Positions 5,624-53,870 of a stretch of 64,000 nt of DNA are shown piece after piece. Origin of the DNA: an uncultured Rickettsiales bacterium (GTDB lineage Bacteria; Myxococcota_A; UBA796; UBA9615; CAYRNR01). The notes beneath the pieces were generated by a model that was not told where the DNA came from, made no database searches, and saw nothing but the letters and a program-made list of their open reading frames with translations. Numbering within the stretch: position 1 is the stretch's first letter; each line of letters starts with the position of its first letter. Location of the stretch: positions 1,254-65,253 of the forward strand of contig CAZXHG010000012.1 in the NCBI GenBank assembly GCA_964639985.1, written 5' to 3'. The translations under genes were made by a program, and so were the position numbers.

Positions 5624-5643
5624 GCGATGGGAGGGACAGCACG

Positions 5644-8166: not shown

Positions 8167-8244
8167 GCTGTGCGGTTCGCGGCAGGTGAACAGGCGGGGG
8201 GCCGGGATCGGGCGGAGGTCCGCCGGGAGGAGGGGAGCACACGC

Positions 8245-15273: not shown

Positions 15274-16175
15274 GCCTCTCCCCAGGTGGAAACGATGACC
15301 GTGGCCAGCGTGGCCGACCACACGAGCATCAGCCAGGCGGTCGCAGGAATGGACTGACGTTCGTCCAGCACGCTGACGCCATCGGGCAGCGGGGCGGATG
15401 CAGACGGCAGGAAGGGACGCAACCACAGCAACCGCATCATCGCGAGTCGCGCCCACCGCGACGACAGCGCCGCCGTGAAGGCGAGGGTCACGCCCAGTCC
15501 AGCGGTACACATCGCCGAGAAGATGGCGTGGTGGTTTGCCCTCGCGATGGTGCCCCTCATGAAATCGAACAGGAACCCCCACTCGGGTATCCAGCCCGTC
15601 CACTGGCGCGCGGCCACCACCACGTGTCCGTTGAAGGCATCCAGCCAGTGGCTGTCGAGGGAGGCCGTGACCCGGTGGGTGACAAGTGCGAGTAGCACAA
15701 CCCCGACGAGCGTGACCACGACGCCAATCCAGGGTTCCCCGGACCCATCCGATGCCAGGAACCCCGCCACGACGGAGCCGATGGCGGCCGCGTAGACCAG
15801 CAGCTGCAGCACCAGGGCGAGCAGCAGGACGATGATCCAGAACAGCCAGCAGGCAGCAACGGCGACGATCGAGCTGCCGTAGGTGAGCGCATAGACGACG
15901 AGGCCCAGCGCCCCTGGAGCGAAGATGGCCAGCAACGCCAGCTGCAGCAGCTCGAGGTTGACCCACGCCTCGCCGCGCACGGTCTCTCGGGGCCTCATGC
16001 TCAGCCCCATCAGCGCTCCGACGCCGGCGAGCGACACGACGATGCCGACGCCGATGCGGGGCGACATCATTCCCCCGCGGAGGTGATTCTCCAGGACGAG
16101 CCAGCCCATGCCCCCGCTCACGACGAGGATCGTCAGGATCGCCCAGTCGCGGTGGGAGGTGTGCCGGACGTTCAT
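15270..16175 (-). CDS. Polytopic integral membrane protein, paralog B
   Basis: 301 aa, about 8 TM helices. Motif RPRETVRGEAWVNLELLQLALL. C-terminal LRPFLPSASAPLPDGVSVLDERQ. Paralogous to 13989-14945. 4-nt overlap with upstream gene 16172-19105. Confidence 0.55.
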   Translation of the reverse strand: MNVRHTSHRDWAILTILVVSGGMGWLVLENHLRGGMMSPRIGVGIVVSLAGVGALMGLSMRPRETVRGEAWVNLELLQLALLAIFAPGALGLVVYALTYGSSIVAVAACWLFWIIVLLLALVLQLLVYAAAIGSVVAGFLASDGSGEPWIGVVVTLVGVVLLALVTHRVTASLDSHWLDAFNGHVVVAARQWTGWIPEWGFLFDFMRGTIARANHHAIFSAMCTAGLGVTLAFTAALSSRWARLAMMRLLWLRPFLPSASAPLPDGVSVLDERQSIPATAWLMLVWSATLATVIVSTWGEA

Positions 16176-19105
16176 CTCCAGTGCCTGTCGATCAATGCCC
16201 GAACCTCGCCCTTGCTCATGCGCTCGGTGGTGAAGCAGAGCAGCTCGAGCGGGGAGTCGATCTCCTGGCCGAACGGATCGTCGTCACCCAGCACCAGCGA
16301 ACCCAGCGATCGCGCAGCCCGGCCGAGGAGCGGTGGTTTCCTGAGACTCTCCCGGACCTCCCCGAGCGTCGTGCCTTCCCGGCGAACGCGGTGCAGAGCG
16401 AGCGCAGCCAGCCGCCTCAGCAGGTGATCTGCGTGCCTGCCGCGGGCCAGGCGGGCGAGCCAGGCCAGCTGATCGTAGTCGGGTGGGTGGTCGTACAGAT
16501 CCCGCCGGTTGATATGGTCGAGCTGGGCTCGCGGTGGGTAGTACCAGGCGCGTTGCAGGACGAGGAGCAACTGGGCGCCCGACAGGGAGTCCAGCGCACG
16601 TTGCTCCACAGCACACATGGATTCGTAGTCGTGTTCAGCGGCCCAGGCATCGGTCCTCGTGGCCAGGTTCCAGAGGAATCGCCATGCATTCCGATCCTGC
16701 AGCCCCTGCCTACGGATCGTGTCCTTCCAGTACTCTCGGACCTCTTCCGAGCCGACCATCCCCAGGATCAGCAGCTTCAGCGGCCCTGGCGGAGGCGTCA
16801 CGGGAGCATCGTCCGGCAGGAGCTCGAACACGGCTCGGAATCCTCCTTCCGAGTCAGCGTTGGCCAGCAGGACGCCGAGGTCGGGAGGGGAGGGCATCGC
16901 CCGGAACACCAGCGCGATCTGCGTCATCTCCTCGGCGGTGAGTGTGACCCTGGGCATCGGCCGACCTCGTAGCAGGGCGGACATCGCTCGGAAGATGTCG
17001 GGGAGCCCGGCCGTGGCGCGGCGCGAGGTTCCCAGCCACGCCTCGATCAGCTGAAGCGTCGCCCGCTCGCAGGATGCGGTCGGATGGGGTCCCGAACCAG
17101 AGCAACACTCGGCCAGCCGGCCAATGGTCGTCTCGTCCCGATCGCCAAGTCGCTGCAGGCACAGCTCGTTTCCCAGGGCTGCCAGGTCGCCGTTTTCGGC
17201 TCCGTCGCGCACGCCGAGCAGCAGCCACCGGATCGGCTGACCGAGCCGGGGTCCCAGGGCCGCGTCCACGCTCGCCTTCTGTCGTACGCCGAGCTCGCTC
17301 CATCCAGCCAGCAGTACCCGGGCCATGCCGGCGTCCATCTGTGGACTGCCGGCGTCAACGGCCTCAATCAGATTGCGTAGGACTCGCCTGAACCAGGCCT
17401 CCCTTGTGAGCGCCCGGGACGTCAGCTGCCTGAGGAGGAGCACGTCATGTCCAGCCCGACCGGCCAGGTCCGCCAGCACGAAGGCGCCGAGCGTGGAGCC
17501 GTCTCCGTCGCGCAGTGAGGCGATCAGGAAGTCGAGTTCGGGTGCCGAGCCTGTGCCGCCAGGCAATGCCTGGACGAGCGCGGCCCCGTCGGCGGCTTCC
17601 GGGGATCGCCCCTCGGAGAGGGTGAGGTACGCCCTGCCTGCGGGGGTTCCGCCGAGCGCCGAGAACAGACGAGTGCTGGTTCGTCCGTTCACGCGAGCGA
17701 CGCGTACCGCAGCCCAGAACAGCGTCCCGGCCGAGGCCTGGCGCCAGGCAGACAGCCAGGCCGCGTCGTCGGGATCGGGCAGGAACAGGTCCGCCCAGAT
17801 GTCGTGGGTCTCTCCCAGGGAGTGTCCTGCGGTCACGGCGGTATCGAGTCGCTGGCCTGCCTTGCGGGCCACGTGGTCCGGGAGGGGAAGGGTTCTCCAC
17901 AGGTTGGCTGCGTGCGGGACGCTGCCCTTGACCAGGCCGAGCAGGACGGCCAGCTCCTCGTGGTAGTTGTCGCGGTCTCGCGCGCAGGCCTCCAGCCAGG
18001 CGGGCTGCCAGGTGGTGTTCACCAGCTCAGGGAGGAAATCGCGGCCGCGGTCCTCGATGGCGTGGAGGATCGCGACGAGTGCCTCGACCTTCAGCACATC
18101 GAAGTCGAGGGCTGGTCGCTGATCGGTCGTGCGTGACAGCCATGCCTCGAGGTCCTGGAGCTGGGCCGACTCGCCGAGCACACCGCTGACGAGCCGGGCC
18201 GCCTCCTGCCACGACGCCTCGATGGGGATGGCGTCGTACGCCGCGTGCAACGGCAGGGCGGACGCCACGGCTTCGGTCAGCTGTCTGGGAGTCGAGCAGT
18301 CCCTGGCGACCTGCTCGAGCCATGCCACATACCGCCTGCCGGGCGTCAGGTCGATGTCATCGTCGCCGCGCCGCTCGCCTGCGATGACACGGACGCCGTC
18401 CATGGCCCGCATCCCGTTGGCGATGGCAACGGAGCCGTCCATCTCGATGAGCCCCGTTCCCACGGTCACGCGCCAGGCCATGGCGCGTGGCAAGGCGCAG
18501 AGGCACAGGCTGGCGAGATCCAGGAACTCCGCGTGTTCGCGCTTCCAGTCCTGCACGCTGAGCCCGTGGCCCGACATGAGCACTTCGAGCACGTCTCCGG
18601 CTTCAGTCAGCCAGTCCGGGGGCAGGTCGCCGTCCAGGAACATGTCGTCGTCGGTCGTGACAGCTGGAAGGTCCTTCTCGATCCCGGTGGTCGGTTCGGC
18701 ACGCAGGACCTGGTCGAGTTGGGAGGCCGAGGCGGCACTCCACGCCGACGCGGATACCACGAGGTAGTGGGCCTGCGTGAAGATCCTCCCCGGCAATCCC
18801 CTTCCCCCTTCGGACAGCCCACGAACCCGGCAGGCGACGACCCACGACGCCCCCTCGACCTCGAGGGGCTTCACGATGATGCCGCCACCGCGTTCGAACC
18901 AGGGGTGGTCCTGCCAGATGAACTGCTCGGATGCGCCGATGCCCACGACATCGGGACGGCAGTGGTCCTCCAGGGAACGAGCGAAGCCCACAGAGAATCC
19001 CGTGACGTCGTGCTCGGATCCCTTCACGATCGGACCATCGACGGTCTGGACGATCTTGCCGTATCGACACTGTTCCCAGATCACACGATCACTCCCTCGA
19101 AACAA
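16172..19105 (-). CDS. Large soluble hypothetical protein (977 aa), Ala/Leu-rich helical
   Basis: Long ORF with strong GC3 bias and no recognisable catalytic motif. Start lies just after the stop of GTPase gene 19110-19946. Confidence 0.55.
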   Translation of the reverse strand: MFRGSDRVIWEQCRYGKIVQTVDGPIVKGSEHDVTGFSVGFARSLEDHCRPDVVGIGASEQFIWQDHPWFERGGGIIVKPLEVEGASWVVACRVRGLSEGGRGLPGRIFTQAHYLVVSASAWSAASASQLDQVLRAEPTTGIEKDLPAVTTDDDMFLDGDLPPDWLTEAGDVLEVLMSGHGLSVQDWKREHAEFLDLASLCLCALPRAMAWRVTVGTGLIEMDGSVAIANGMRAMDGVRVIAGERRGDDDIDLTPGRRYVAWLEQVARDCSTPRQLTEAVASALPLHAAYDAIPIEASWQEAARLVSGVLGESAQLQDLEAWLSRTTDQRPALDFDVLKVEALVAILHAIEDRGRDFLPELVNTTWQPAWLEACARDRDNYHEELAVLLGLVKGSVPHAANLWRTLPLPDHVARKAGQRLDTAVTAGHSLGETHDIWADLFLPDPDDAAWLSAWRQASAGTLFWAAVRVARVNGRTSTRLFSALGGTPAGRAYLTLSEGRSPEAADGAALVQALPGGTGSAPELDFLIASLRDGDGSTLGAFVLADLAGRAGHDVLLLRQLTSRALTREAWFRRVLRNLIEAVDAGSPQMDAGMARVLLAGWSELGVRQKASVDAALGPRLGQPIRWLLLGVRDGAENGDLAALGNELCLQRLGDRDETTIGRLAECCSGSGPHPTASCERATLQLIEAWLGTSRRATAGLPDIFRAMSALLRGRPMPRVTLTAEEMTQIALVFRAMPSPPDLGVLLANADSEGGFRAVFELLPDDAPVTPPPGPLKLLILGMVGSEEVREYWKDTIRRQGLQDRNAWRFLWNLATRTDAWAAEHDYESMCAVEQRALDSLSGAQLLLVLQRAWYYPPRAQLDHINRRDLYDHPPDYDQLAWLARLARGRHADHLLRRLAALALHRVRREGTTLGEVRESLRKPPLLGRAARSLGSLVLGDDDPFGQEIDSPLELLCFTTERMSKGEVRALIDRHWR

Positions 19106-19109
19106 GCGA

Positions 19110-19946
19110 TCATCGGTTTAGACGCGAACGCCAGCATACGCCTCGGGCCAGGAACTCGATGGGCTCGTAGACCCGGTAGGGCCACCAATCCCGGTAGGCA
19201 TTCTCACCATCGAGGTGCCAGCCCTCCGGCCCCTGGATGGCCGCTCTCGCGCCCGTTCTCCGATCGAACCCGAACGCCGAGACCAGGAAGTAGCCGTCAC
19301 CCCCGGGCGCGACCGCATGGCGGACGACCTCGACGAAGGACTGCCCCAGCGCCTCGCGCACGGTCGATGCCGGCTTCAGCTGTTCCACCTTGCCGACGAC
19401 GTCCCGTGTGCCGGGGGCCACGTGCAGCTCGGCCATGGTCAGCGTGATCGCCATCCTGAGGAAGGCAGGGCGACCGCCCTGGATGCCCTTGCGCTCCCTG
19501 ACGAGATCGAGCAGCTCCGCGAAGCGGTCGATCAGGTTCGGGGGCCGCAGCTCCTGGTCTCCGGGAACCACGAAGAGCAAGGCGTCAGCCTGGGCCAGAT
19601 CGTCGAGCACGTCGTCGGAGAATCGCTGCTCCGGCGAGGGCACGCAGCCGCCTCCGGGCACGTCGACCATGGTCAGCTGGATGGATTCCTTGCCGAGTCC
19701 GAAGAACACGGAGCCAGGCAGGTCCGCGACGAACGAGTAGCGGTTCACCGCCGATGTGGCCACGATCAGCCTGCCCATCAGCACGTCGATCGCCCGGTCG
19801 TAGAGCCGGAACGCTGGCTCGTTGTCGGGTTCGGGCCGCACCTGCAGCGGCCTCGACGTCCTGCCCATGGCGTCGGACGCCAGCAGCAGGCTCGCGAGGT
19901 ACACGGTCTTGCCCGACCGTGTCGGGCCAGCGACGGCGACTCGCAT
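19110..19946 (-). CDS. P-loop GTPase (TRAFAC-like), first of a tandem pair
   Basis: Probable start MRVAVAGPTRSGKT (Walker A/G1 GPTRSGKT). G3-like MVDVPGGG. Start codon lies 2 nt after the stop of the preceding GTPase gene. Confidence 0.6.
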   Translation of the reverse strand: MRVAVAGPTRSGKTVYLASLLLASDAMGRTSRPLQVRPEPDNEPAFRLYDRAIDVLMGRLIVATSAVNRYSFVADLPGSVFFGLGKESIQLTMVDVPGGGCVPSPEQRFSDDVLDDLAQADALLFVVPGDQELRPPNLIDRFAELLDLVRERKGIQGGRPAFLRMAITLTMAELHVAPGTRDVVGKVEQLKPASTVREALGQSFVEVVRHAVAPGGDGYFLVSAFGFDRRTGARAAIQGPEGWHLDGENAYRDWWPYRVYEPIEFLARGVCWRSRLNR

Positions 19947-19948
19947 CG

Positions 19949-20889
19949 TCAGAGGTCCTTCGCCGCGATGACGGTGAAGCCCCTGCGACACACCAGCCCG
20001 GTCGCGACGTAGACGAACGGATCCAGCACCTGGAACGGTCTCCAGGCGTCGATCACGTCCTTGTAGTCACACGCCTCCTCCTGGACCACCAGCATCGAGT
20101 CCGTGGTCGGGTTGTAGTTGGGCAGACCGCTCTGATCCGGCAGGAAGCCGTACGCCGAGACGAAGCCGAGGGCGACCTGTGTTTCGGGCTGCAGCGAGTT
20201 GCGAAGCCTCGCCAGCGTTGGCTGGGCGAGCGTCTTCCTGAGGAACGCGACCGGGTCGGTGTCCCACACGTGCTCCAGCGCGCTGCACTTGCCCTGGGTC
20301 TCCTTCTGCGCCCACTTGTCGGCCTTGGTGAAGCAGATGGCGACGCGGTCGTATGGCAGCCGGTCGTACCCCACCTCGTAGATGAGCTTCGGCAGCTGGG
20401 TGAAGAAGGTCATCGCGTCGGGATCGTCAGCGCTGATGCAGAGGATCAGTCCATCGCCGTCATGCATCTCCGCGACGACCCGCTTCCTGAACTCCTCGAT
20501 CTGCTTGTGATCGACGTCCGCGGCGTTGGAGTCGGGGAACATCACGCCGCCGGGGCCGTCCCACATGACGAACGTCGTCTCGAGCTCCCTCTTGACCTTG
20601 GTGAAGAAACCACTCTCGACCCAGGAGACCGCCAGCTTGAAGGAGTACTTCTGCATACCCTGGGTCGCGCCCATGGGCAGTACGCCATTCCTCAGGGTGT
20701 TCTTCACCGTCGAGAACAGCTCCACCAGTTCGTCGGAGCGGGGGTACACGACCACGTTCTGGGGGTGGAACCTCCTGGGCTGGGTATCGCCGGCGAGCTC
20801 CAGTGTCGACAGCAGGCCGGTCTTCCCGACCTTGGTCGGACCGATGACGATGTAGCGCTTGGAGGACTCGATCTTCTCGACCTTCATGA
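19949..20889 (-). CDS. P-loop GTPase (TRAFAC class), second of the tandem pair
   Basis: Start MKVEKIESSKRYIVIGPTKVGKTG (G1). G3 WDGPGG. G4-like ICFTKADK (N/TKxD). ATG overlaps the TGA of the upstream radical-SAM-like gene (ATGA). Confidence 0.6.
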
Positions 20890-21600
20890 GTTCCCTCTTG
20901 TGATCTGTTCTTCGGTAGCGGGTGGGAGTCGCATCGCCACCATGGTTTCGACTCGCTTCGCAGCGTCTCTCGTCTGCAGTCCCGAGATCGACACGGCACC
21001 GGTAGGGTCGACCCGGATGGAGAAACCCTTGCGTTGCCGCTCCCAGGCCTCGTCCAGGGTGGCCTGGTCGTACCGGCTGCTCAGGCAGTGGATACGCTGG
21101 TTGGTGGAGCCTCGCCAGCGCGCCGTGTCGGCGTAGCTCCCCTGCTGGAACGGACCATCGACCAGCAGGTCGGTCGAGGCGAGCCAGCGCGCCGTGCCAT
21201 GGTCCGTCCTGCGGTTCAGCTGCTCGAGGGTGTATCCCGTGTAGACCATGCACGAGAGTCCCAGGGCCCGAGCGCCCTGGAGGAGTGTGGCCAGGGCCTC
21301 CGGCTGTTCGGACGGTTCCCCGCCGAGCACGGTGATGCCCTCGACCGGTCTGCCCGATTCGCGACACACGAGCCGTAGTCGGTCGAGGATGTCCGTGACG
21401 CGGATCTCGGACCCACCCGCCGGATCCAGCAGCCTCGGTGTGAGGCAGACCTCGGTGCACCTCGACGTGCAACCCTGGAACCACAGCGGGACCCTCCAGC
21501 CCGGCCCGTTGTGCAGGGTTGGCCGCAGGCTGTCGAGTCCATGTCCCAGGCGGACCGAATCGTCGGGGTCGTGAGCCTGATCGTGTGCCGCGTCCGTCAT
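20884..21600 (-). CDS. Radical-SAM-like 4Fe-4S single-cluster protein (NrdG/QueE activase-like) with atypical cysteine spacing
   Basis: VPLWFQGCTSRCTEVC resembles the NrdG/QueE cluster-binding loop but is spaced CX3CX3C. Size (238 aa) and the ITVLGGEP glycine-rich SAM-binding-like segment fit this family. Confidence 0.5.
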   Translation of the reverse strand: MTDAAHDQAHDPDDSVRLGHGLDSLRPTLHNGPGWRVPLWFQGCTSRCTEVCLTPRLLDPAGGSEIRVTDILDRLRLVCRESGRPVEGITVLGGEPSEQPEALATLLQGARALGLSCMVYTGYTLEQLNRRTDHGTARWLASTDLLVDGPFQQGSYADTARWRGSTNQRIHCLSSRYDQATLDEAWERQRKGFSIRVDPTGAVSISGLQTRDAAKRVETMVAMRLPPATEEQITRGNS

Positions 21601-21616
21601 GCCTCCCTCGCGCGGT

Positions 21617-25200: not shown

Positions 25201-25273
25201 CTCGATTCCTTTCCTGACCGGCCAGGGGGGCGAGCGATGGGCCGCTCCGGGCAAGTCCGCCCCAGCATGGGTA

Positions 25274-25734
25274 TCAATCCTCGCTCGAGGACGGGGCGGC
25301 CGCGCGGCTGAGGCTGTCGAGGAGGTCCGTCCAGCCGACGAGGACAGTCACTCGCGAGTCGGTTCGCTCGCACTCGTCGTGGAGTTGCTCCCGGCGTCTG
25401 GCGGCATCGTCGACCTCTGCGGTGTACGCGGCGAGCTCTCCCTCGACGTCCTCGGCCAGCGTCGGGCCGATGATGCGGTCCGTCCACTGCCCGACGAGGT
25501 CGACGAGTCTGCGGTCACATCCCGTGGGTAGGGGCACATCGCCCAGCGTCATCTCCCGGCGGATCACCTCGGCGTTGACTCGTGCCGTACCATCGGGGAG
25601 CTGGCCGTCCATACCCTCGGTGGATTCGAAGACCTCACGCTCGAGCCGCAGCAGCGCGTCCTCGACATCCTCCCCGGACTGGAAACGACTCCTCAGCTCC
25701 TCGAATCGCGCCCGCAGCTTGTCAATCGTCATGA
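25274..25734 (-). CDS. Small acidic/coiled-coil hypothetical protein (~153 aa)
   Basis: Internal start MTIDKLRARFEELRSRFQSG of ORF 25274-26311; the N-terminal extension is arginine-rich artefact. Overlaps the stop of the upstream gene by ~13 nt. Confidence 0.4.
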
Positions 25735-26462
25735 CGCACCTCGGCCAGGACGTCCTTGGGGATGCTCCATGTCTCCTCCAGGTGTGCGTCGGCGAGGCGA
25801 GGCTCCACGAAATCGGACAGGAGGCGGCGGGCGTGCACATCCGGCAGGTCGGCCAGGGCCTGCATGACCGCCGGATCGATGCGGTGCCAGTCCTCAAGGC
25901 GGCTCCGGGTCTCCCTCTCCTCACGCTCCAGGCTCTGCTTGCGCTCCTCGAGCGCTTCCTCCTCGGCCAGGACATCCTGGATCTCGGCCGACCGTAGGGC
26001 AGCCGCTTGAACTCGGGAGGCGACTCGCGCACGGTACTCGCCCAGGACCGGGGCGAGCTGCGTGATGCGCGCCTCCACCATGGCGGCAGGTTGTCTGTCG
26101 ATGTCCCTCCATTCCAGGAACCGCCCGGCCTCCTCGACGATCTCGGCATCCAGCGCGGCCTGACAGGACGCCAATCGGTGCTCGATCCCATCCGCGACAG
26201 CCTGCGTCCGCGCGCGTATGGTCTGCTCCGCAGCCTGCTCGGTCTCGGCGATCGCCTCCACGAGTGATGCCCTGTCGATCCTCGTTTGCTGCAGCTCGCG
26301 CTGGAGAGCATCCCTGCGAGATTCCATCTCGTCGGGCCGTTGCAGCTCGCTCAGCCTCGCTCGCAGCTGGCTGACCTCGGCTTCGAGACGCTGTTCCACC
26401 TCCCGCGTCCGGCCTCCGAGCAGTGACGCGACCCGCTCCACCCAGGCTTCGGCCTCGCCCAT
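25722..26462 (-). CDS. Coiled-coil hypothetical protein (~246 aa)
   Basis: Start MGEAEAWVERV. Its ATG overlaps the TGA of the upstream gene (TGATG). E/R/A/L-rich heptads. Confidence 0.4.
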   Translation of the reverse strand: MGEAEAWVERVASLLGGRTREVEQRLEAEVSQLRARLSELQRPDEMESRRDALQRELQQTRIDRASLVEAIAETEQAAEQTIRARTQAVADGIEHRLASCQAALDAEIVEEAGRFLEWRDIDRQPAAMVEARITQLAPVLGEYRARVASRVQAAALRSAEIQDVLAEEEALEERKQSLEREERETRSRLEDWHRIDPAVMQALADLPDVHARRLLSDFVEPRLADAHLEETWSIPKDVLAEVRHDD

Positions 26463-26911
26463 CAGGTCCCCCCTTCCCCCCTCAACCGCCGCTGGATGGC
26501 CCCCAGCTTCGCGGTCAGGTCCGCGACCTCCAGCTTCGCCCTGTCCACGGAAGTCCTGAGCGCGTCGACCTCGGCCTCGATCCGCTTGGCTCGCTCCGAC
26601 GCGGCCAGGGCTCGCTCGATGCCCGCCTCGAGCTCGCGCCGCTCCCCGCGGAGCTGCGAGATCCGGGGCGTCTCCACGTGCGCCTCCGGTGCGCTGTCGC
26701 CTACTCCAGCCAGCGATATCAGCGCGCTGAACTCCCGGCTCTCCGAGGAGCTCATGAGGAACCCCTGCATCCACTTGACCGCCGACTTGTGCAGGTCGAC
26801 GTCGTCCGGGCCGGCTGCCGCGATCGACTCGCGCATCTGCGTCAGGCAGGCATCTGCACCCTCCTGCCGGTAGACCTCGACCCAGGCCGCAGCCATCTCC
26901 CTGTGTGTCAT
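26462..26911 (-). CDS. Coiled-coil hypothetical protein (~149 aa)
   Basis: Start MTHREMAAAWVEVYRQEG, directly after the stop of the upstream gene. C-terminal ELEAGIERALAASERAKRIEAEVDALRTSVDRAKLEVADLTAKL coiled coil. Confidence 0.4.
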   Translation of the reverse strand: MTHREMAAAWVEVYRQEGADACLTQMRESIAAAGPDDVDLHKSAVKWMQGFLMSSSESREFSALISLAGVGDSAPEAHVETPRISQLRGERRELEAGIERALAASERAKRIEAEVDALRTSVDRAKLEVADLTAKLGAIQRRLRGEGGT

Positions 26912-26913
26912 GG

Positions 26914-28536: not shown

Positions 28537-28541
28537 GAGCC

Positions 28542-31130
28542 TCAAGCCTGGTCCTCCCCGGGAGTCGTCTCCTGTTCGTCTGTCTCCGTTTCGCCGCCGG
28601 CCCGCTTCCACGACTCCCAGCCGGGGAGCTCGGCGACCGCCGCGATCCAGTCGGGACGAAGCCGGCACCAGCGTGCTGTCGGTGGCGGTGGTGCTGCCAT
28701 GGCGGTCGACGTGGCGAGTCGCGGTACGAGCTGGTCCAGCAGGTCTGCTTCCGACTCGTGGAGGCCGGGATCGTGGAGGATGGGCCTCAGTACGTCCCGC
28801 ACAGGATCGAGCAGGGGCAGCAGCGCCAGCATCTCGTCCGCGCCCATGGGCGGGATCGGCCCGTGGGGCGCGCAGGCCGTGAGCTCGGCCCTCAGCCACC
28901 GGCCGAGCGAATCGCGCAATCCCCTCGCGCCGAGGATTGCCTCGATGGCCTCGTCGCGTTCCGCCCCCCGTGTACCGGCCCACTGCACGGCCTGAGCACA
29001 CAGGGCGGTGCCAGGCAAGGCATGGACGCAGATCCGGAGAGCCCGCAGGGACAGCCGGTGACGCGAGGCAAGGGCGCGTCCTATCTCGTCGACCAGCGCT
29101 GCATTGCGCTGGCCAGCCAGCTCGCTGACGAGCCAGTTCACGAGATCCGCGCGGATTCCGCCTGACCAGCGCCGCCAGAAGGTCTCCTCCTCGACCTGTC
29201 GAGCCAGCGCAGGCGTCAGCTGCGCGGGCCAGTCCCTGGGAGGCCTCGCCGGTGGGAACGCGCCGGTGTCGAGCAGCGCGATGGCCTCGCCCGGCATGTC
29301 GATCGCCCGTAGCACGTCGCAGGGCGCGCCATGCTCCACCGCGTCGTAGATGTCGGTTGCCCGCAGGGCGCCGACATGGACGAAGAGCCGCAGGTTCTCG
29401 AGATCCCGCTCCTGCGCCGCAGAGGCATCGAGGTTCCGACCTTGCGCCTCCATCACCCGGATCCCGAGCACTGCGCGGACCATCCTGCCCGGCTGCATCC
29501 CGATCGCGCACAGAAGCTTGACCAGCGCGGGCCCATCGGGCGATGGATCGCCCGCAAGCTGGGCCTCCCTCCACCATCGCACGAACGTCGCCGTCGCCTG
29601 CTCGCGGGTCACCTCCGCATCGGCGAACGCGGCGAGGAGCCACGTGGCTGCGATCTCGGACCAGGCCCCGTCGAGCGAGGGGATCTGACGTGGCTCGATG
29701 CCCGGATGGATCGCCAGCGCCTGCAGCCACCACGTCCTTGTCTCTCGCTGTCCACACAGGTGACGACCCGCCTCCAGCAACTCCTCGGCGGTGAAGCCGG
29801 ACACCCACAGCGGTTCGGGAGCGGGGAGGGCTGCCGGCGTGGCAGGTAGCGGGGGGGCGGTGAATGGCACGCCGCGGCAGAGGGTGGCCACCAGCGGGGC
29901 GGACAGCCCGGCGTCCTCCAGCGCCCGCTCGAAGCGGGGTTCGACCCAGGCGAGCCGAGCGCGAGCACGCAGCTTCGCCAGGGCGTGCAGCTCGATCCGG
30001 TCCAGCAGCCCGGCATCGGCCAGGCAACGGAGATCCTCGCCTTCGTCCTCGAACGTCCGGCCGTTGGCGTCGGTCCACTCGCCATGGGATAGCCTGTCCC
30101 ACGTCTCCCGCGCGGCAGGCGGAAGGAGCCGGTCTGCGCCCGGTGCTTCCGGGCCCACCAGGTCGATGAAGCGGTCGAGTGCGCGCGGCTCACCGGCGAG
30201 CACGGCCGCCAGATGGGGGCCGTCCTCGGCCTCGATCCGCCCCTGGACCGCCGGTAGGTCCGCGGCGGTCAGCAGGCCCCGCTTCAGCCAGCTGGAGACC
30301 CTGCTGGCATCCGCCTCCGCCAGCGCGTTCGCCCGACCGTTCCTCGTCGTGATCAGCCAGTCGAGCGCCCCGGGGAGAGCGGCGATCGCGGGCGTCAACT
30401 GCTTTCCTGCGGCGAACCCGAGCAGGTCCATTCGCTGCGCCGCCGTGGTCCGTGTACCCGCCAGCGCCGCGAGGTCGGCCTCGGCCAGTGCCGTGCGGGC
30501 GTCCGGCCTGGCGATGAGTCGCTGCACGGCGCGGGGGGGAGACCACGGGGTCGTCGAGATGACGAGACCGGGTTCGGCTGGAAATCTCGGAGGCAGCCGC
30601 TTGGGCAGGAGCGCGACGAACGTCACCGGACCATCGGCCCCCAGGGCCTGCAGGATCCTCGATGCGGTCCCCGCACGCCGTACCACGACCAGCGGTGCCG
30701 CCGCGGTCAGCAGGCATATCGCCGCGCCGAGGTATTGCTCGAGGTCTGCCTCGTCGGCGGCCGGGAGCACCACGGAGTCCCCGTCGCGCGTGGTCCGGCC
30801 GGGTTCGTCGACCTGGTAGGCGCCATGGACCAGCAGGGGCAGGTCTTCGGGGGCGAGCGGCACGGCCACGCGGGCGAACGCGAGGTGGCACAGCTGGCGG
30901 CCGGCGTTGTCCGTGCCCGCCTCGTCGCAGGCTCGCAGCAACCACCACGCGTCGTCGACGAATGCCACGGTCACCGACTGCGGATTCCCGGCGCTGATGT
31001 GCACCTGCAGCCACTCCCCGGCGATCCGGAGGACCTCCCTGGATGCGTGGGTGCCGGCGATCTGCTGGAAGTCCTCCGCCGGAGACGGCTTGGCCAACAG
31101 CCCGACCGAGTCGAGAATCACTCTGGCCAT
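28542..31130 (-). CDS. Large Ala/Leu-rich helical-repeat hypothetical protein (~863 aa)
   Basis: Start MARVILDSVGLL at 31130, 7 nt after the stop of the Ras-like GTPase gene, with a G-rich SD. Long alpha-helical repeat-like sequence. Confidence 0.5.
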   Translation of the reverse strand: MARVILDSVGLLAKPSPAEDFQQIAGTHASREVLRIAGEWLQVHISAGNPQSVTVAFVDDAWWLLRACDEAGTDNAGRQLCHLAFARVAVPLAPEDLPLLVHGAYQVDEPGRTTRDGDSVVLPAADEADLEQYLGAAICLLTAAAPLVVVRRAGTASRILQALGADGPVTFVALLPKRLPPRFPAEPGLVISTTPWSPPRAVQRLIARPDARTALAEADLAALAGTRTTAAQRMDLLGFAAGKQLTPAIAALPGALDWLITTRNGRANALAEADASRVSSWLKRGLLTAADLPAVQGRIEAEDGPHLAAVLAGEPRALDRFIDLVGPEAPGADRLLPPAARETWDRLSHGEWTDANGRTFEDEGEDLRCLADAGLLDRIELHALAKLRARARLAWVEPRFERALEDAGLSAPLVATLCRGVPFTAPPLPATPAALPAPEPLWVSGFTAEELLEAGRHLCGQRETRTWWLQALAIHPGIEPRQIPSLDGAWSEIAATWLLAAFADAEVTREQATATFVRWWREAQLAGDPSPDGPALVKLLCAIGMQPGRMVRAVLGIRVMEAQGRNLDASAAQERDLENLRLFVHVGALRATDIYDAVEHGAPCDVLRAIDMPGEAIALLDTGAFPPARPPRDWPAQLTPALARQVEEETFWRRWSGGIRADLVNWLVSELAGQRNAALVDEIGRALASRHRLSLRALRICVHALPGTALCAQAVQWAGTRGAERDEAIEAILGARGLRDSLGRWLRAELTACAPHGPIPPMGADEMLALLPLLDPVRDVLRPILHDPGLHESEADLLDQLVPRLATSTAMAAPPPPTARWCRLRPDWIAAVAELPGWESWKRAGGETETDEQETTPGEDQA

Positions 31131-31137
31131 CGCCCCC

Positions 31138-31947
31138 TCACCCCTTCTCGTTTCCCGGCCGGCACACACCCAGCTCCCCCAGGAGGTACGCCAGCGGAGC
31201 GGCCACGCCCTGGGGCCGCACCCCGAACGGGAGTGCCTGACCGAACTCGCTGAGGATGATGGCGGGATCGCCGGTGGACCCGCTGTATCCATAGGCGGTC
31301 GACGGCCAGATCCTGTCGTCGAACCACTCCTTGAGTTCATCTTCCCGGCGCAGGCACCACTCCTCCCCGTGCCACCAATCCTGGGTCCGCGACCACGCCG
31401 GGTGGTTCTGGGGCAGGTGACGCTCGCACTTGGTGAAGGTCAGCGCTCGAGGCTTGGTACCCCAGAACTGGTGGCTGTTACGGATCGCGTCGATCTGCCG
31501 GGCGACCTCCCGGGCTCTCCATTCGAGCAGGAACAGGAACGCGTCGGCCTCCTCGAGCTGTTCCTGGACCCAGGGTTGCTGGATCTCCTGGGTGATCTGG
31601 CCGCGGACGTCGCGGATACGGACGATGCCGCCGTCACTCAGCGTGAGATCGAGATCGATGTGCTCCTCGCTCGTGGGTCGGACCCACCGCTCGGTGTTGA
31701 GCCGTTGCCAGTGCTGGGCGACGACGCGGACCGTGGCGCCACCGCACCGCGACCAGTCGATCCCCGGGAGCTTCACCTTCTGGTCGGTGTGGTACAGCGC
31801 GGTCGCGAGCAGGGACGTCTTGCCCACCTGGGTGTCCCCCCAGAGCAGGATCGTCCGTACTTCGCCGTCTGGGTCTCGAGCCGCTGCCGCGGCTTTTCGT
31901 GTCGACTTGGTTCTTGCCCTGGTCACAGCTCTATCCCGGCTCCCCAC
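31138..31947 (-). CDS. Ras/Roc-like small GTPase
   Basis: G1 LLWGDTQVGKTSLL. G3 DVRGQ (canonical DxxGQ of Ras-like GTPases). G4-like FTKCE. 269 aa. Confidence 0.65.
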   Translation of the reverse strand: MGSRDRAVTRARTKSTRKAAAAARDPDGEVRTILLWGDTQVGKTSLLATALYHTDQKVKLPGIDWSRCGGATVRVVAQHWQRLNTERWVRPTSEEHIDLDLTLSDGGIVRIRDVRGQITQEIQQPWVQEQLEEADAFLFLLEWRAREVARQIDAIRNSHQFWGTKPRALTFTKCERHLPQNHPAWSRTQDWWHGEEWCLRREDELKEWFDDRIWPSTAYGYSGSTGDPAIILSEFGQALPFGVRPQGVAAPLAYLLGELGVCRPGNEKG

Positions 31948-32026
31948 TGCCCTGTGGCGCAGTCCTGATCATTCAGCTCGATTCCCGCGACCCCACGAAC
32001 CGCCGCGACACCGCCTCGGTACCGGA

Positions 32027-32056
32027 GCAGGGCTCCCGTCCCCGGCGGTACCGGAG
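32027..32056. promoter_or_regulatory. Two direct copies of CGGTACCGGAG (each holding the palindrome CGGTACCG) 19 bp apart, upstream of the Ras-like GTPase gene
   Basis: Copies at 32027-32037 and 32046-32056, in the 144-bp intergenic gap between 32092 and 31947. This is the only sizeable gap inside the long - strand array. Confidence 0.35.
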
Positions 32057-32091
32057 GGCGAGCACCATCGTACACGCGCACCTGCGGGCTC

Positions 32092-35000
32092 TCAAACGAC
32101 GCGAAGATGCGCCCTGGCGGCGGCCGCGCCGGGAGGAACCAGACCGTGCTGGTCGAGCAGCTGGTGGAGAGCCTCCCCTTGATGAGTCCCTTCCACTTCC
32201 AGGGCCTGGGGAGGTTGCCCAGGGGCCAGAACCGACGGCTCGATTCCCAGCGCTGCCCAGGCGCTGTTCAACCAGGCGAGGGTCTGCTCGAACCCGCCCC
32301 CGCGCGGTAGAGCCTCCGGGGGCAGGCTCGAGCGGGCTGCCTCCTGGAGGTCCGAGACGCGCTGCTGCAGGATGCCGCGGAGCTGCCGCAGGACATCCGT
32401 GGTCGAATGGAAGCTACCTGTACCCGCCTCCAGCACCTCCAGCGCCCGGTCCGTGGCCTCGCTCGCGGCGGCAAGACCCTCGAGCGAGCCGAGCGGGTCG
32501 GTCAGCAGGTGCCGACTGCTCTGGTCGGCTTCCATGAGGGACATCATCGGCTCATCGTCCGGGCACAGCCACAGGAAGTCCTTGAGCGGCGGCTTCTGGG
32601 GTCCGTCGAGCGCGAGGCGAGAACGCCTGTCGAGGATCGCCTCGATGGCCTGGCTCGACTCCAGGGCGACGGCCAGGTCGTCCCAGTGGCGTTCGACGAG
32701 GAGCGCCTCGAGGAATGCGGAGTAGCTGTCGCGTCGATGGGTCGGGATGGCCTCGAGCACGGTCGACATTCGCTTCCGAGCGTGCTGGGTCAGCTCCATC
32801 CTCACCTTGTCGACCGACTGCTGGAGCTTGCTCACCCCGCGATGTGAAGCGAGGATCACGTTCGTCGTGTCCCGGGCCTGGCTTGCCTCGAGGGCGTCCC
32901 CGAGGTCGAACAGGTCCAGCGTGCCCTTGCGAGCTCGCGTCAGCCGGTTGGCCAGTCGCTTCACACCGAGCACCCGGCTGCCGGCCACCAGTGTTGCGAG
33001 ATCCTCCAGCAGCGGCGTGGCCCGTTCCCTGATCTCCTCGAGCACGGCCTCGGCCCGTGCGAGGATTCGAGCCTCGATCTGATCCACGGGCATGCTGCGA
33101 TCGATCTCGAGGCCATCGCGAATCTCCGCGGGGACCGATTCGAGATGAGCCATCCAGTCCGCCTGCTTCTCCGCATCCTGGATGATCGCCCGATCTGCAC
33201 TGGAGCAGAGCCGCTCACCACCCGCGAGACTCTGCACGCCGCTGTAGTTCTCGGCGATCAGCTCTTCCAGCCTGGGAGCCCACCGTGTCCGCGTGGTTTC
33301 GGTGGCGAACCGCAGGCGGTCGGTCAGGTCCCGGGCCCGGCCCCGCAGGTGATCCCAGGCCGCCGGGCCGAGATGCCGGACCACGAAGCGCCCCGCGGAG
33401 CCCTCCAGCCATCGAGTGCAGTCTCCGATCCCCTCGGTGGCAGCCCCATACCAGGCCTCGGCCGGAAAGGACGTCAGGGCTGTCGCAGCCGATCGACACC
33501 GCTTCATGCCATCCAGCAGCAGCGCCTGCGCCAGGTCACTCTGCGCGTCGAGGCCCATGGTGGCCAGGTGCTCGACAGCAGGGGCAGCGGGGATCCCCTC
33601 CCATGCCTGCTGGAGGCTGCCGAGCAGGGCTTTCGGGTCGATATCCTGCTCGGTGTCGCGTCCCGTGGAGGGCCACGGCGGAATCCGGCTCTCGCCGGCC
33701 AGCGTATCCAGCCAGCACAGGGCCTCGTGGGCCAGGCGGTCGTGCCGCTCCAGCTCCGCCCGGTGGCGAGTGAACGTGAGTCCGTCGACCCGGAGGTGGA
33801 CGTCATCCGCTCCATCGGTGACCGGTGGAGCCCCGTGGGCAACCTCCGTCGCGTGTCTCTCCGCAGCCGTCAGCGCCTCGAATCCCTGCGAGGCCGAGAT
33901 GCGCAGCCGCCTGGAGACCTGCCCCAGGTCCCCCCACCACGAGGGAAACGGAGGCCGACGGCCCGCGAGATCTTCGATTTCCAGCGCCGTGGCATGGGCC
34001 AGTTGCGCGACCTGATCTCGTGCCCCGATGACCTCGTCGCCCGATCCTCCTTCCTCGATGACTCGCCGTCTCCTCGCATCGCAGGCCTCGGCGTCCGCCC
34101 TCGGACGGCAGCCTAGGAGATAGTGCTCGGGCAGGCCGTCCAGCGCCGGGTCGATCAGCAGTCGGTACGCCTCCTGCACGCAGAGAAAGTCGTCGGGCTC
34201 CACCTGGATCCGGCGTGTTACGAGCTCCGGCAAGGAGCCCAGGCTTGCACCGCTCGTGGCCAGCGACAGCCACCGCTCGACCTCCGTGGGAGGGAGGCCC
34301 TCGAGCCACGCCGCGACATCTGCCGAGTCGTCCCCGATGGCGTGGCGCAGCATCGCCGGGGCATCCAGCGGGCCCGCTCCGGCTGGAAGTCCCAGCAGAC
34401 CCACCGGGCCGCACAGATCGGGATTCCAGATGAGCCCCTGAACCACCTGCGGGTGGGCCCACAACGCCGCCAGCAGATCGCCGATCGTGTCGTCGACCTC
34501 GAGGATGTCCGCCACGTCGGACCGCTCGCCCGATTCGAGGACCTCCAGCAGGATCTCCAGCGCGGCCGTGGGTGTCCTGGCGAGCGCCTGGCAGAGGTCG
34601 GGATCTCCCAGCTGATCCGCCAGCTCGAGCTCGATCAGCCGGCGCACGAATCCTGGAATGCGCACACACAGGTCGACCACGGTCTGGCCTGGATCGGCGA
34701 TGAGCTGCTCCAGCTCCCGGAGCAGCGCCTGGATGTCGGGTGGGAGAGGCGGCTCACATGACGAGGGGCGCCAGTCGTCCAGCGAGACGAAGGGGACCTT
34801 GCCGATGGTCGACAGGTACTCGACGAAGGGTCCGGGGAGCTCGACACAGCGCCCCGCCGCTGCGTCGACGCCGACGGTCAACAGCACGCTGGCCGGCGCG
34901 ATGATCGCCACGCGGTCCTTGAAATGCAGCCCGTCCAGGGGGAGGGTGTGGGAGCCAGCGCCCAGCTGATGGCTCCACAGGCTCTCCGCACCGCCGGCCT

Positions 35001-35667
35001 GGAGGCGCCAGCGCACGATGGTCAGGGGCACCCCGAGGTCACCGGCCGAGGCGTCGACCCTCGCCTTGATGTGGGGCGGCCGTCCGCCGATACCAGCATG
35101 GAAGTGCGCGTGGATGGTGCAGGCCGCCGGCCCGAGCCAGCTCGCGGCCGAGGGTCCCACCACGCCGTCGCGGATCGGGGTGGCGACCTCTTCCCTCCAG
35201 CCGCCTCGTTCCCACGCGAGCGGGTCTTCTTCGCAAGGCAGGTCGGTGGGCGGGACGACGCCGTCCAGCGTGAACCACCGTTGCTCGACGGAACCGAGGG
35301 GCCACCGCGTCATGCAGACGCTGCCCGGGATACCTCCAGCGATCACCCCTTCCGGTTCGTCCGTGGTGTCGATCTCCGCCTGCGTCGAGAAATCGAACCG
35401 CCATCGCTCCAGACATCGATGGTTCGAACGCAGCTCCACCTCGAACGGGCCCGAACCGGGGGCCGGTAGCAGTGCCAGGGTTCGACCACTCGGGAGCGAA
35501 AGCGCTTCTTCGAGATCGCCGTCGGGAACCGGCAGCCTGGCACCACTCTTCCCGCCAGCCCACCGTGTGCCCCGAACCCAGATCGACAGGGGAATGTCCA
35601 CCGCCCCGGGCAAGCGCATCACCAGGACGCCGAGGTCACGGTGCCAGTGCCATCGCGCGTAGGTCAT
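32092..35667 (-). CDS. Very large hypothetical protein (1191 aa), first gene of the GTPase-centred array
   Basis: Uninterrupted ORF with strong GC3 bias. Helical Ala/Leu-rich C-terminal two thirds. No recognisable catalytic motif. Confidence 0.55.
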   Translation of the reverse strand: MTYARWHWHRDLGVLVMRLPGAVDIPLSIWVRGTRWAGGKSGARLPVPDGDLEEALSLPSGRTLALLPAPGSGPFEVELRSNHRCLERWRFDFSTQAEIDTTDEPEGVIAGGIPGSVCMTRWPLGSVEQRWFTLDGVVPPTDLPCEEDPLAWERGGWREEVATPIRDGVVGPSAASWLGPAACTIHAHFHAGIGGRPPHIKARVDASAGDLGVPLTIVRWRLQAGGAESLWSHQLGAGSHTLPLDGLHFKDRVAIIAPASVLLTVGVDAAAGRCVELPGPFVEYLSTIGKVPFVSLDDWRPSSCEPPLPPDIQALLRELEQLIADPGQTVVDLCVRIPGFVRRLIELELADQLGDPDLCQALARTPTAALEILLEVLESGERSDVADILEVDDTIGDLLAALWAHPQVVQGLIWNPDLCGPVGLLGLPAGAGPLDAPAMLRHAIGDDSADVAAWLEGLPPTEVERWLSLATSGASLGSLPELVTRRIQVEPDDFLCVQEAYRLLIDPALDGLPEHYLLGCRPRADAEACDARRRRVIEEGGSGDEVIGARDQVAQLAHATALEIEDLAGRRPPFPSWWGDLGQVSRRLRISASQGFEALTAAERHATEVAHGAPPVTDGADDVHLRVDGLTFTRHRAELERHDRLAHEALCWLDTLAGESRIPPWPSTGRDTEQDIDPKALLGSLQQAWEGIPAAPAVEHLATMGLDAQSDLAQALLLDGMKRCRSAATALTSFPAEAWYGAATEGIGDCTRWLEGSAGRFVVRHLGPAAWDHLRGRARDLTDRLRFATETTRTRWAPRLEELIAENYSGVQSLAGGERLCSSADRAIIQDAEKQADWMAHLESVPAEIRDGLEIDRSMPVDQIEARILARAEAVLEEIRERATPLLEDLATLVAGSRVLGVKRLANRLTRARKGTLDLFDLGDALEASQARDTTNVILASHRGVSKLQQSVDKVRMELTQHARKRMSTVLEAIPTHRRDSYSAFLEALLVERHWDDLAVALESSQAIEAILDRRSRLALDGPQKPPLKDFLWLCPDDEPMMSLMEADQSSRHLLTDPLGSLEGLAAASEATDRALEVLEAGTGSFHSTTDVLRQLRGILQQRVSDLQEAARSSLPPEALPRGGGFEQTLAWLNSAWAALGIEPSVLAPGQPPQALEVEGTHQGEALHQLLDQHGLVPPGAAAARAHLRVV

Positions 35668-38341: not shown

Positions 38342-38609
38342 CGGGATTTCTCGGACAGGAGGATTCAGATCTCTTCCAGGTCGCCCTAGCGACGAGGGTT
38401 GCGCGCAGCATACATCGGGCTGGTGCGGGTTGCATCCAGCGCTGATCGACCCCCTCGAATCCCGCTCTCCCCCCGAGGAGTCGACGTCTGTTCTCCGGTA
38501 TACTGCCGCGGGCGAGGTGCGTGGGCGAGGGGCAGCCGTGGCCACGGTTGGCCGGATGCCGGAGCCTCAACCCCAGTGCCTCTCGTCAGGCGGGCGGATA
38601 CTACCGACG

Positions 38610-53857: not shown

Positions 53858-53870
53858 CGGAGACCCTCCC

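Follow-up and report, generated by a model that had tools for sequence, protein, structure and literature searches.

Introduction

Nucleoside triphosphate (NTP)-dependent systems of biological conflict have been predicted computationally by Kaur, Burroughs, Iyer and Aravind (eLife 2020; PMC7159879), and two of the classes delineated there are the described systems closest to the locus considered here, an array of 13 genes (G1 to G13 in the direction of transcription) located within 64,000 nucleotides of DNA from an uncultured Rickettsiales bacterium (assembly GCA_964639985.1, contig CAZXHG010000012.1, positions 1,254 to 65,253 of the forward strand), a stretch to which we refer as the window. 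In one of these classes, DO-GTPases with a conserved Walker-B glutamate are often encoded as two adjacent paralogous copies, with the gene of a GAP1 protein located downstream (Kaur et al., PMC7159879). The other comprises the FtsH ternary systems (subsystem 3 of the MoxR-vWA systems), for whose radical S-adenosylmethionine (SAM) protein the same authors predicted peptide modification. The MoxR-vWA and DO-GTPase-GAP1 pairs were found not to be swapped between systems (Kaur et al., PMC7159879). The array described in the following shares features with both classes, and we put at about even the chance that it constitutes one horizontally mobile, multi-component NTP-dependent conflict system, that is, a hitherto undescribed hybrid of the two.

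Results

Layout and conservation of the array

Raw lists of open reading frames (ORFs) are noisy in the window because of its GC content of ~68%. Gene models were built from frame analysis of GC at third codon positions (GC3), in combination with ORF calls, inspection of start codons and translation. According to GC3 frame transitions and ORF calls, 13 minus-strand genes fill positions 16172-35667 exactly (Table 1), and our models agree with the genes called publicly on metagenome contigs of identical sequence (JGI and ENA assemblies); the tight packing reported by a first-pass annotation of the window is thus borne out. Junctions between genes range from -11 to +16 nucleotides and include several ATGA overlaps, the exceptions being G1-G2 (144 nucleotides) and G7-G8 (73 nucleotides, or 19 if an alternative TTG start is used). 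The coding strand of the array exhibits no terminator-like hairpin, and a promoter-like site in the 144-nucleotide gap is of a kind occurring at chance frequency. Curated families are matched significantly by two of the 13 products, G9 and G10. The first-pass annotation had considered the AAA ATPase alone to be confidently annotated, which holds for G9 (PF00004) and misses the likewise significant match of G10 (Fer4_12).

A single-protein search with G11 of 5.8 billion proteins retrieved only G11 itself, since proteins related at ~30% identity escape the word prefilter. A search with G9 retrieved a full-length relative in Geomonas nitrogeniifigens, and further relatives were found by scans with a G10 alignment, which covered one genome per species and then metagenomes. 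The genome scan yielded five further loci in metagenome-assembled genomes (MAGs) of Pirellulaceae, Gemmata, Oligoflexales, Spartobacteria and Sericytochromatia, and the metagenome scan yielded 265 relatives; 80 loci were kept and compared by tblastn, BLASTP and family hidden Markov models (HMMs). The loci referred to most often below are those of Geomonas nitrogeniifigens (L005), Pirellulaceae (L006), Oligoflexales (L009, the same as L013) and Gemmata (L010), a contig from a soil metagenome (L014), and three loci of a divergent type (L018, L021 and L022).

The locus of Geomonas nitrogeniifigens (CP077684.1, about 3,265,338-3,287,143) belongs to a sequenced isolate and is complete. Orthologs of G2 to G10 stand there in the order of the window, preceded by a 1019-residue protein that is weakly G1-like. 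On the 3' side of G10 come genes for a lipoprotein and for an ABC exporter of the MacB type (ABC_tran, FtsX/MacB_PCD; L005:12723-15726), and then those for a G11-like GTPase, a PPC-domain protein and a G13 ortholog; the G11-like GTPase possesses three N-terminal hydrophobic segments predicted to be transmembrane. The full order G2-G3-G4-(G5-G7)-G8-G9-G10-G11-(G12)-G13 is present in Geomonas, Pirellulaceae and Oligoflexales, the last of which also retains G12 and the downstream genes D1 and D1b, and the soil contig agrees with this order, G2 being lost at the contig end. Partial copies are located on shorter contigs, that of Gemmata included, and fragments are found in Spartobacteria and Sericytochromatia. 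The upstream boundary was compared with Geomonas only; all other loci end at or before G2.

Between loci, identity amounts to ~50% for G10 and to 25-37% for most other products, and the colinear order spans at least five phyla at 25-53% protein identity. Since gene order is kept across phyla at such divergence, the clustering is not due to chance. The first-pass annotation had asked whether the genes might prove scattered and unlinked in other genomes; they are not, their order being kept in Geomonas, Pirellulaceae, Oligoflexales and the soil contig. The distribution is patchy, each phylum being represented by single MAGs or species and not by entire lineages. Sequence comparison thus shows the array to be a multi-gene unit that is conserved but patchy in its occurrence.

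The three divergent loci keep G7/G8-G9-G10-G11-x-G13, with a G2-like GTPase moved downstream and other, unassigned large proteins present, and G3 and G4 are undetectable in L018 and L022. Because these loci retain them, we regard G8-G9-G10-GTPase-G13 as the core. In another locus (L008), a G3-like gene is directly joined to G10.

Immediately 3' of the system, the soil contig encodes a tyrosine integrase, a HicB-like protein and a D5_N/DUF5906 primase (L014:15048-18939), a neighbourhood which suggests an integrated mobile element. At the corresponding place, the Pirellulaceae locus encodes a 1340-residue NB-ARC STAND NTPase (L006:15192-19214).

The AAA+ ATPase and radical-SAM pair

G9 had been annotated as a classical AAA ATPase, and the Pfam match confirms this. 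Its Geomonas ortholog is 31% identical across 97% of the length. The Walker A motif (GPPGTGKT) is intact, and Walker B reads NE in the window and DE in most orthologs. Peptidase_M41 was not found in G9 by Pfam.

About half of the 80 retained metagenome loci contain a gene for an FtsH-type AAA protein within a few kilobases of the G10-like gene, and seven of them (L032, L039, L052, L054, L063, L066 and L069) are complete FtsH ternary systems. L052, for example, has the order radical-SAM, fvmX6, fvmX5, FtsH (AAA and M41), fvmX7 protein and bpMoxR (9.4e-60), and this group was identified as FtsH ternary because its gene order matches the published description (PMC7159879). Comparison of the G9 family with the FtsH proteins of the verified loci yielded an hhalign probability of 98.7% over 561 columns, including the N-terminal region. 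In this alignment, the ~370-residue N-terminal region of G9 is the counterpart of the first, degenerate AAA domain in FtsH ternary ATPases. In three further loci (L042, L044 and L058), a G10-like radical-SAM gene is accompanied by genes for an AAA+ protein and a helix-hairpin-helix membrane protein.

G10 is the most conserved gene of the array (48-53% identity between loci) and adjoins the AAA+ gene in every locus that reaches upstream of it. It matches Fer4_12 with 92.4 bits (cut-off 22), and its best NCBIfam match, NrdG (TIGR02491; 1.3e-22), remains with 80.4 bits below the cut-off of 126.1, as does PflA. The radical-SAM-like assignment of the first-pass annotation (NrdG/QueE-like) is confirmed by Fer4_12, and the cluster motif has to be corrected to CxxxCxxxC. 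It occurs as QGCxxxCTxxCLN in the window and in all 20 loci of the clade, in which the canonical third cysteine is gone and the following cysteine is retained, whereas the radical-SAM relatives in FtsH ternary systems exhibit CxxxCxxCC. The G10 alignment shows GGEP and further activase motifs to be invariant, and identity between G10 and the Fer4_12 genes in L032, L039, L052 and L054 amounts to 41-47%. Alignment and profile comparison thus establish homology between G9/G10 and the AAA/radical-SAM pair found in FtsH ternary systems. Pfam scans of the window products yielded neither a PFL nor an NrdD match, and the glycyl-radical motif [RK][VIL]xG[FYW] has one match, not C-terminal, in G1, with nothing convincing among the array products.

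Three paralogous GTPases

The two adjacent genes G11 and G12 had been read in the first pass as tandem TRAFAC GTPases, and they are indeed adjacent paralogs of one family, 15 sequences of which share the motifs GPxxxGKT, DGPGG, (L)TKAD and SAxGF as well as a family-specific C-terminal motif, WxPFxVxDP..F.ATG. The Walker B motif is DGPGG in most members and DGPGE in the Pirellulaceae locus only. G2, for which a Ras/Roc-like nature had been proposed, does not match Ras or Roc in Pfam and yields weak AAA_16 matches only; it aligns with the G11 family at an hhalign probability of 98% over 237 columns and has TKxE, SAYG and the C-terminal motifs and extension in common with G11 and G12. This paralogy rules out the Ras/Roc assignment. 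On these alignments, G2, G11 and G12 are paralogs of one TRAFAC family, which is assigned to the extended Ras/Arf/SR-beta fold. L005, L006 and L009 each carry a G2 ortholog (35-37% identity) at the corresponding position. A G12 ortholog (45% identity) is found in L009 only, and G12 occurs together with the membrane protein D1 in both loci possessing it. Adjacent paralogous GTPase copies are present in the window (G11 and G12) and, two each, in L009 and L010.

The commonest specific Pfam match of the family is DO-GTPase2, obtained for nine of the 15 members (best E 9.4e-7). One sub-threshold match spans profile positions 5-183 of 226, and G12 itself matches DO-GTPase1/2 weakly (15.3 bits for DO-GTPase2). 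A distant relationship of the array GTPases to the DO-GTPases described by Kaur et al. 2020 is thus most probable.

In the Gemmata MAG, one of the tandem GTPases (L010:5217-6821) contains an insertion of ~200 residues with a UQ_con E2 fold (E 2e-5) and an HPD..C stretch. This insertion hints at a link between the GTPase family and ubiquitin-like (Ubl) conjugation chemistry.

Large proteins and coiled-coil proteins

G1, G3, G4 and G13 yield no match in Pfam, NCBIfam or PADLOC, and G1, G3, G4 and the N-terminal domain of G13 (G13-N) constitute, as set apart by sequence searches, at least four orphan families. G1 and the C-terminal half of G13 evolve fast and are barely alignable between loci. 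Between G1 and the Geomonas gene at its position, BLAST finds only two segments, colinear and weak (E 0.002 and 0.035), and membership of G1 in the system is tentative. Orthologs of G3 (25-34% identity) are present in L005, L006, L009 and L014, and those of G4 share 28-33% identity. The C-terminal domain of G4 carries the motifs FDRTCPD, WFAD, PGLDLWD and GNSPP, invariant in an alignment of 43 sequences. It may, in our view, be a very divergent vWA-like domain; the searches lend this no support, the G4 family matching no vWA in Pfam or in sequence searches of the PDB.

Orthologs of G13 are encoded 3' of the GTPase genes in L005, L006, L009, L010, L011, L014, L018, L021 and L022, being next but one in L009 and in the type-B loci. 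G13-N exhibits the motifs YGKxVQ, GPI..G.EH..TG, YPW, RSE.GEG..GR.YT.AH, SG.P.S.QDW and CLPE..AR..SFG.GL, and a single-sequence AlphaFold2 model of G13, which is poor (pLDDT 41), is all-helical after residue ~250. Profile searches of the PDB with the G13, G4 and G13-N alignments gave no match. GAP1 families of Pfam were found neither in eight G13 orthologs at E≤1 nor in nine proteins with G13-N at E≤0.01. A HMMER scan of 1.84 billion cluster representatives with a chimeric query (G13 residues 1-400, G4, and G3 residues 1-250) produced 271 matches at E≤1e-3, 191 of them at E≤1e-10; among the best 150 of the 271, 79 contain the G13-N domain, 61 are G4-like and 10 are G3-like. The G13-N domain also stands alone in ~350-residue proteins with a low-complexity leader of ~60 residues (P0082, P0085, P0090, P0100, P0122 and others), and is fused once to WG beta repeats (P0053, 1377 residues).

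The N-terminal domains of G3 and G13 align colinearly over 172 columns, pairing the motifs ExGxDxxGR and LP..R.P.G.GL, at a non-significant level (hhalign E 0.01, probability 4%). Because G2 is paralogous to G11 and G12, and G3 resembles G13 at this non-significant level, a duplication of a 'GTPase plus partner' module (G2/G3 versus G11-G13) within one system is suggested.

The first-pass annotation had listed four coiled-coil proteins, and long, heptad-like, proline-free segments are indeed evident in G5, G7 and G8; by the same crude measure, G6 is strongly helix-biased only. HMM matches were found for G5 in L005, L006 and L009 (same position), for G6 in these three and L014, and for G7 in the three and L022. 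G8 has a conserved N-terminal motif, MS[YW]xxxGxxY, and a small globular C-terminal domain in which D-x-K-S and one cysteine are invariant. Its orthologs stand immediately 5' of the AAA gene in nine loci, divergent variants included.

Downstream membrane genes and flanks of the window

The array had been reported to continue into paralogous membrane proteins and a CHASE2-like sensor. Depending on whether the three conserved or paralogous membrane-protein genes D1, D1b and D2 are counted, the operon-like array comprises 13 to 16 genes. The paralogy of D1 and D2 (33% identity, 7e-30) and the CHASE2 domain of D3 are confirmed, and the D3 gene turns out not to be conserved: it is absent downstream of G13 in L006, L009, L014, L018 and L022, while L005 ends ~0.8 kb past G13. 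Since all related loci that extend past G13 lack it, D3 is probably either a locus-specific accessory or a neighbour with no relation to the array, though co-directional. A small gene overlooked in that first list, D1b, is called on the public contigs and encodes a protein 42% identical (2e-21) to the ORF following the D1 ortholog in L009 (L009:13329-13604); the D1 ortholog itself (31% identity) is located between G12 and G13 there.

The upstream neighbour of the array is an NMT1-type ABC importer, unrelated to it, and neither further paralogs of array genes nor tRNA genes were found in the window. In a 1591-residue ORF at 38399-43174 (plus strand), carbamoyltransferase domains of the NodU/CmcH type are followed by a Ser/Thr kinase domain at the C-terminus. 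Because GC falls from ~0.68 to 0.57-0.61 at 40-46 kb of the window, this ORF may represent two genes or a foreign insert.

Table 1. Genes of the array, downstream genes and flanking features, with positions in the window.
Feature	Description	Position	Strand	Characteristics
G1	1191 residues; beta-rich N-terminus and long helical remainder	32092..35667	-	GC3 frame
G2	GTPase paralog 1, 269 residues	31138..31947	-	GDTQVGKTS, DVRGQ, TKCE, STAYGY
G3	862-residue partner of G2	28542..31130	-	conserved ~250-residue N-terminal alpha/beta domain; helical repeats
G4	540 residues	26914..28536	-	N-terminal domain, beta-rich middle, C-terminal alpha/beta domain
G5	149 residues, C-terminal coiled coil	26462..26911	-	heptad-like segment 83-147; weak Crescentin-rod match
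G6	246 residues, helical or coiled-coil	25722..26462	-	E+R+Q+K+A+L = 62% of residues
G7	152 residues, coiled-coil	25274..25732	-	heptad-like segments
G8	551 residues	23545..25200	-	long coiled coil, heptad-like fraction 0.50
G9	FtsH-type classical AAA+ ATPase, 643 residues	21617..23548	-	PF00004 7.9e-18, residues 390-517
G10	small radical-SAM protein, NrdG/PflA-activase type, 238 residues	20884..21600	-	Fer4_12 3.8e-26
G11	GTPase paralog 2, 312 residues	19949..20887	-	GPTKVGKT, DGPGG, TKAD, SAYGF, WRPFxVxDP
G12	GTPase paralog 3, 278 residues	19110..19946	-	GPTRSGKT, DVPGG
G13	977-residue partner of tandem GTPases	16172..19105	-	~280-residue N-terminal domain; ~650 residues of alpha-helical repeats
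D1	301-residue polytopic membrane protein	15270..16175	-	6-8 hydrophobic segments; start overlaps G13 stop (ATGA)
D1b	95-residue membrane protein	14986..15273	-	NYEVHL[VI]QHG
D2	318-residue membrane protein, D1 paralog	13989..14945	-	hydrophobic segments
D3	CHASE2-domain membrane sensor	12101..14041	-	CHASE2 1.8e-15
Flank	895-residue papain-family (C1) protease protein	5479-8166	+	
Flank	1296-residue TPR protein	8170-12060	+	convergent on array
Flank	808-residue Ser/Thr kinase protein	51755-54181	-	
Flank	apparent FtsW-transpeptidase fusion ORF, 1260 residues	53871-57653	-	
Flank	kinase fused to FGE-sulfatase domain	60159-62780	+	

Discussion

Comparison with described systems

The first-pass annotation was reminded of multi-component NTP-dependent conflict systems, and the homology of G9/G10 to the FtsH ternary pair, together with the proximity of the GTPases to DO-GTPase2, makes this likeness concrete. 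The array resembles DO-GTPase-GAP1 systems, in particular those of the GAP1-N2 type, in that (i) tandem paralogous TRAFAC GTPases are followed by a partner of ~1000 residues, (ii) among specific Pfam families, DO-GTPase2 matches the GTPases best, at sub-threshold scores, (iii) transmembrane components are present, including the GTPase with an N-terminal transmembrane fusion in Geomonas, (iv) coiled-coil proteins are encoded alongside the GTPases, and (v) the phyla overlap (planctomycetes and verrucomicrobia). It differs from them, however, in a third GTPase paralog that has a large partner to itself, in an AAA+ ATPase and a radical-SAM protein, both of which DO-GTPase-GAP1 systems lack, and in the Walker-B glutamate, which is not conserved in our alignment (DGPGG), its position being judged from the text of the paper. 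Likewise, no Pfam match to GAP1-N, GAP1-M, GAP1-C, GASH or FNIII was obtained for the array products.

With FtsH ternary systems the array shares an FtsH-type AAA+ ATPase whose N-terminal AAA-like region is degenerate, a small NrdG-like radical-SAM protein encoded next to it, several lineage-restricted alpha-helical proteins, and a similar host range. In contrast to them, its AAA+ ATPase is devoid of M41, its radical-SAM protein has the other cysteine motif, and GTPases stand where the MoxR-vWA pair would be. Pfam detects neither MoxR (AAA_3, AAA_5, bpMoxR) above noise nor VWA in the array, and fvmX5, fvmX6 and fvmX7 are equally absent from Pfam matches, with hhalign probabilities below 30% for every family against alignments derived from the fvmX-containing loci. 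Since the defining features of both classes are thus missing, we assign the array to neither and treat it as a hybrid.

Other families are more remote. G10 is similar to glycyl-radical-enzyme activases (NrdG, PflA; Fer4_12) in size, in the N-terminal Fe-S cysteine region and in the GGEP SAM-binding motif. It differs from them in that its third cysteine is shifted by one residue, its score falls short of the equivalog cut-off for NrdG, its neighbourhood encodes neither a glycyl-radical enzyme nor an RVxG[FYW] motif, and its conserved partner is an AAA+ ATPase. The combination of a GTPase with a dedicated partner and membrane components is reminiscent of MglA-MglB, other small-GTPase polarity switches and YcjX-YcjF; unlike these, the array shows no Roadblock/LC7, Ras or DUF463 match above noise, its partners are novel proteins of 860-980 residues, and its distribution is patchy. 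Full-text literature searches uncovered no description of the array other than the related systems in Kaur et al. 2020. The view that its gene order corresponds to no named system consequently holds, with PADLOC, NCBIfam and Pfam all silent on G1, G3, G4 and G13.

Weighing the readings

Several observations argue for a mobile hybrid conflict system. Apart from the homologies just discussed, we count in its favour the colinear order across phyla, with tight or overlapping junctions and no terminator on the coding strand, the patchy distribution, the integrase/primase and STAND NTPase neighbourhoods, the E2-like insertion in the Gemmata GTPase, the membrane association, as in the systems of Kaur et al., and a gradient of evolutionary rates, from ~50% identity for G10 to the barely alignable G1 and C-terminal half of G13, which is typical of arms-race components. 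Other observations weigh against it. The individual DO-GTPase2 scores listed for the family (15.9-24.8 bits) remain below the cut-off of 27, and the missing Walker-B glutamate, GAP1, MoxR and VWA mentioned above point in the same direction. The neighbourhoods indicative of conflict or mobility come from two loci only (L014 and L006), viral contigs scanned with G10 contain ordinary phage NrdG at ~30% identity and no copy of the system, and the array shows no compositional anomaly within its host genome. No toxic effector domain (nuclease, protease, TIR or pore-former family) is recognisable in the array products. PADLOC-DB 2.0, against which ten products were scanned, gave nothing for nine and matched no system-specific model, G9 showing generic AAA similarity only, to the IetA and TRIP13 models. 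Moreover, the label 'conflict system' of the reference classes is itself a computational prediction, and to our knowledge no member of the NTP-dependent class has been tested experimentally.

If the array is such a system, it is tempting to speculate, by analogy with the model of Kaur et al., how its parts might cooperate. G2 with G3, and G11/G12 with G13, would form two GTP-gated sensor switch modules, with recognition surfaces provided by G1 and by the fast-evolving helical regions of the GTPase partners. G4 and the coiled-coil proteins G5-G8 would form a scaffold that may be assembled or remodelled by the FtsH-type ATPase G9, and G10 would, as the output or an arming step, modify one of the proteins or peptides in the complex by radical chemistry. 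D1, D1b and D2 could serve as membrane anchors of the machine or as terminal effectors at the membrane, a role perhaps taken in Geomonas by the transmembrane-fused GTPase and the MacB-type ABC exporter. The defensive role, the order of events and the substrate of G10 are likewise inferred. The more specific proposal of a self-contained, immune-like machine, in which three GTPases with giant sensor partners would license AAA+ assembly and protein modification by the radical-SAM protein would be the output, appears to us possible but doubtful.

A role in cell organisation has to be weighed against this. The array might encode a cytoskeleton-like or membrane-remodelling machine for polarity, a compartment or envelope organisation, with the GTPases and their large partners acting as an MglA-MglB-like spatial switch on coiled-coil filaments that the AAA+ ATPase would disassemble and membrane proteins would anchor. 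Four products that are coiled-coil or helical, with Crescentin-rod and APG6 matched weakly, three GTPases that adopt the extended Ras/Arf/SR-beta fold, the conserved membrane proteins D1, D1b and D2 at the array, hosts with complex cell plans (planctomycetes, verrucomicrobia and Oligoflexales included) and the lack of a toxic effector domain in the array products would all be in line with such a machine. We nevertheless consider it unlikely, in view of the sporadic occurrence in single MAGs or species per phylum, the very fast divergence of the large subunits, the neighbourhoods in L014 and L006, the closest relatives of the AAA/radical-SAM pair, which reside in MoxR-vWA 'ternary' loci, and a radical-SAM activase for which a cytoskeletal role is not obvious. 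Alternatively, G10 could be the centre of a pathway for protein or peptide maturation and export, modifying a small product (G5, G7, D1b or the C-terminal domain of G8) that the AAA+ ATPase would unfold or present, that the GTPases would subject to quality control, and that the membrane proteins or, in Geomonas, the MacB-type exporter would insert or export. This would account for G10 being the most conserved gene and belonging to the protein-modifying branch of glycyl-radical activases, for its adjacency to the AAA+ gene and to G8 with its invariant C-terminal cysteine wherever the locus extends upstream, and for the lipoprotein and exporter directly 3' of G10 in Geomonas, and the related radical-SAM proteins are predicted to modify peptides (Kaur et al., PMC7159879). 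Such a pathway is distinctly improbable, though, for Pfam scans of the array reveal no precursor peptide, leader peptidase or SPASM/RRE domain, a glycyl-radical motif is convincing in no product, the exporter is present in one locus only, and ~5 kb of GTPase-partner proteins together with the 1191-residue G1 are hard to accommodate.

Finally, there may be no single system at all. The modules G1-G4, G5-G10 and G11-G13 and the membrane proteins could be independent and merely juxtaposed, for example in a defence island, as might be expected from the rearranged L018 and L022 with their downstream G2-like GTPase and no detectable G3 or G4, from L008 with its direct joining of the G3-like gene to G10, from the occurrence of the G9/G10 pair with entirely different partners, and from the gap after G1 with its promoter-like site, chance frequency notwithstanding. 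The full order with overlapping stop and start codons in four other loci from different phyla at ~30% identity, the paralogy of G2 with G11 and G12, and the colinear, if non-significant, resemblance of G3 and G13 make such a chance juxtaposition very improbable in our judgement.

Implications

The analysis defines new families, such as the ~280-residue G13-N domain and a clade of radical-SAM proteins in which the cluster motif is shifted, and because a complete copy of the system is present in the isolate Geomonas nitrogeniifigens, its function can be tested directly. Should the proposal of an immune-like machine prove true, the output of G10 might be a new glycyl-radical-type or cross-linking chemistry at the atypical CxxxCxxxC cluster site, and thus a radical-based effector mechanism as is not yet known in prokaryotic defence. 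If the array is indeed a hybrid conflict system, it would link two predicted conflict classes thought not to exchange core components, and the combination of an FtsH-type AAA+/radical-SAM pair with GTPases in place of MoxR-vWA would imply that the GTPase and MoxR-vWA pairs are functionally interchangeable switches.

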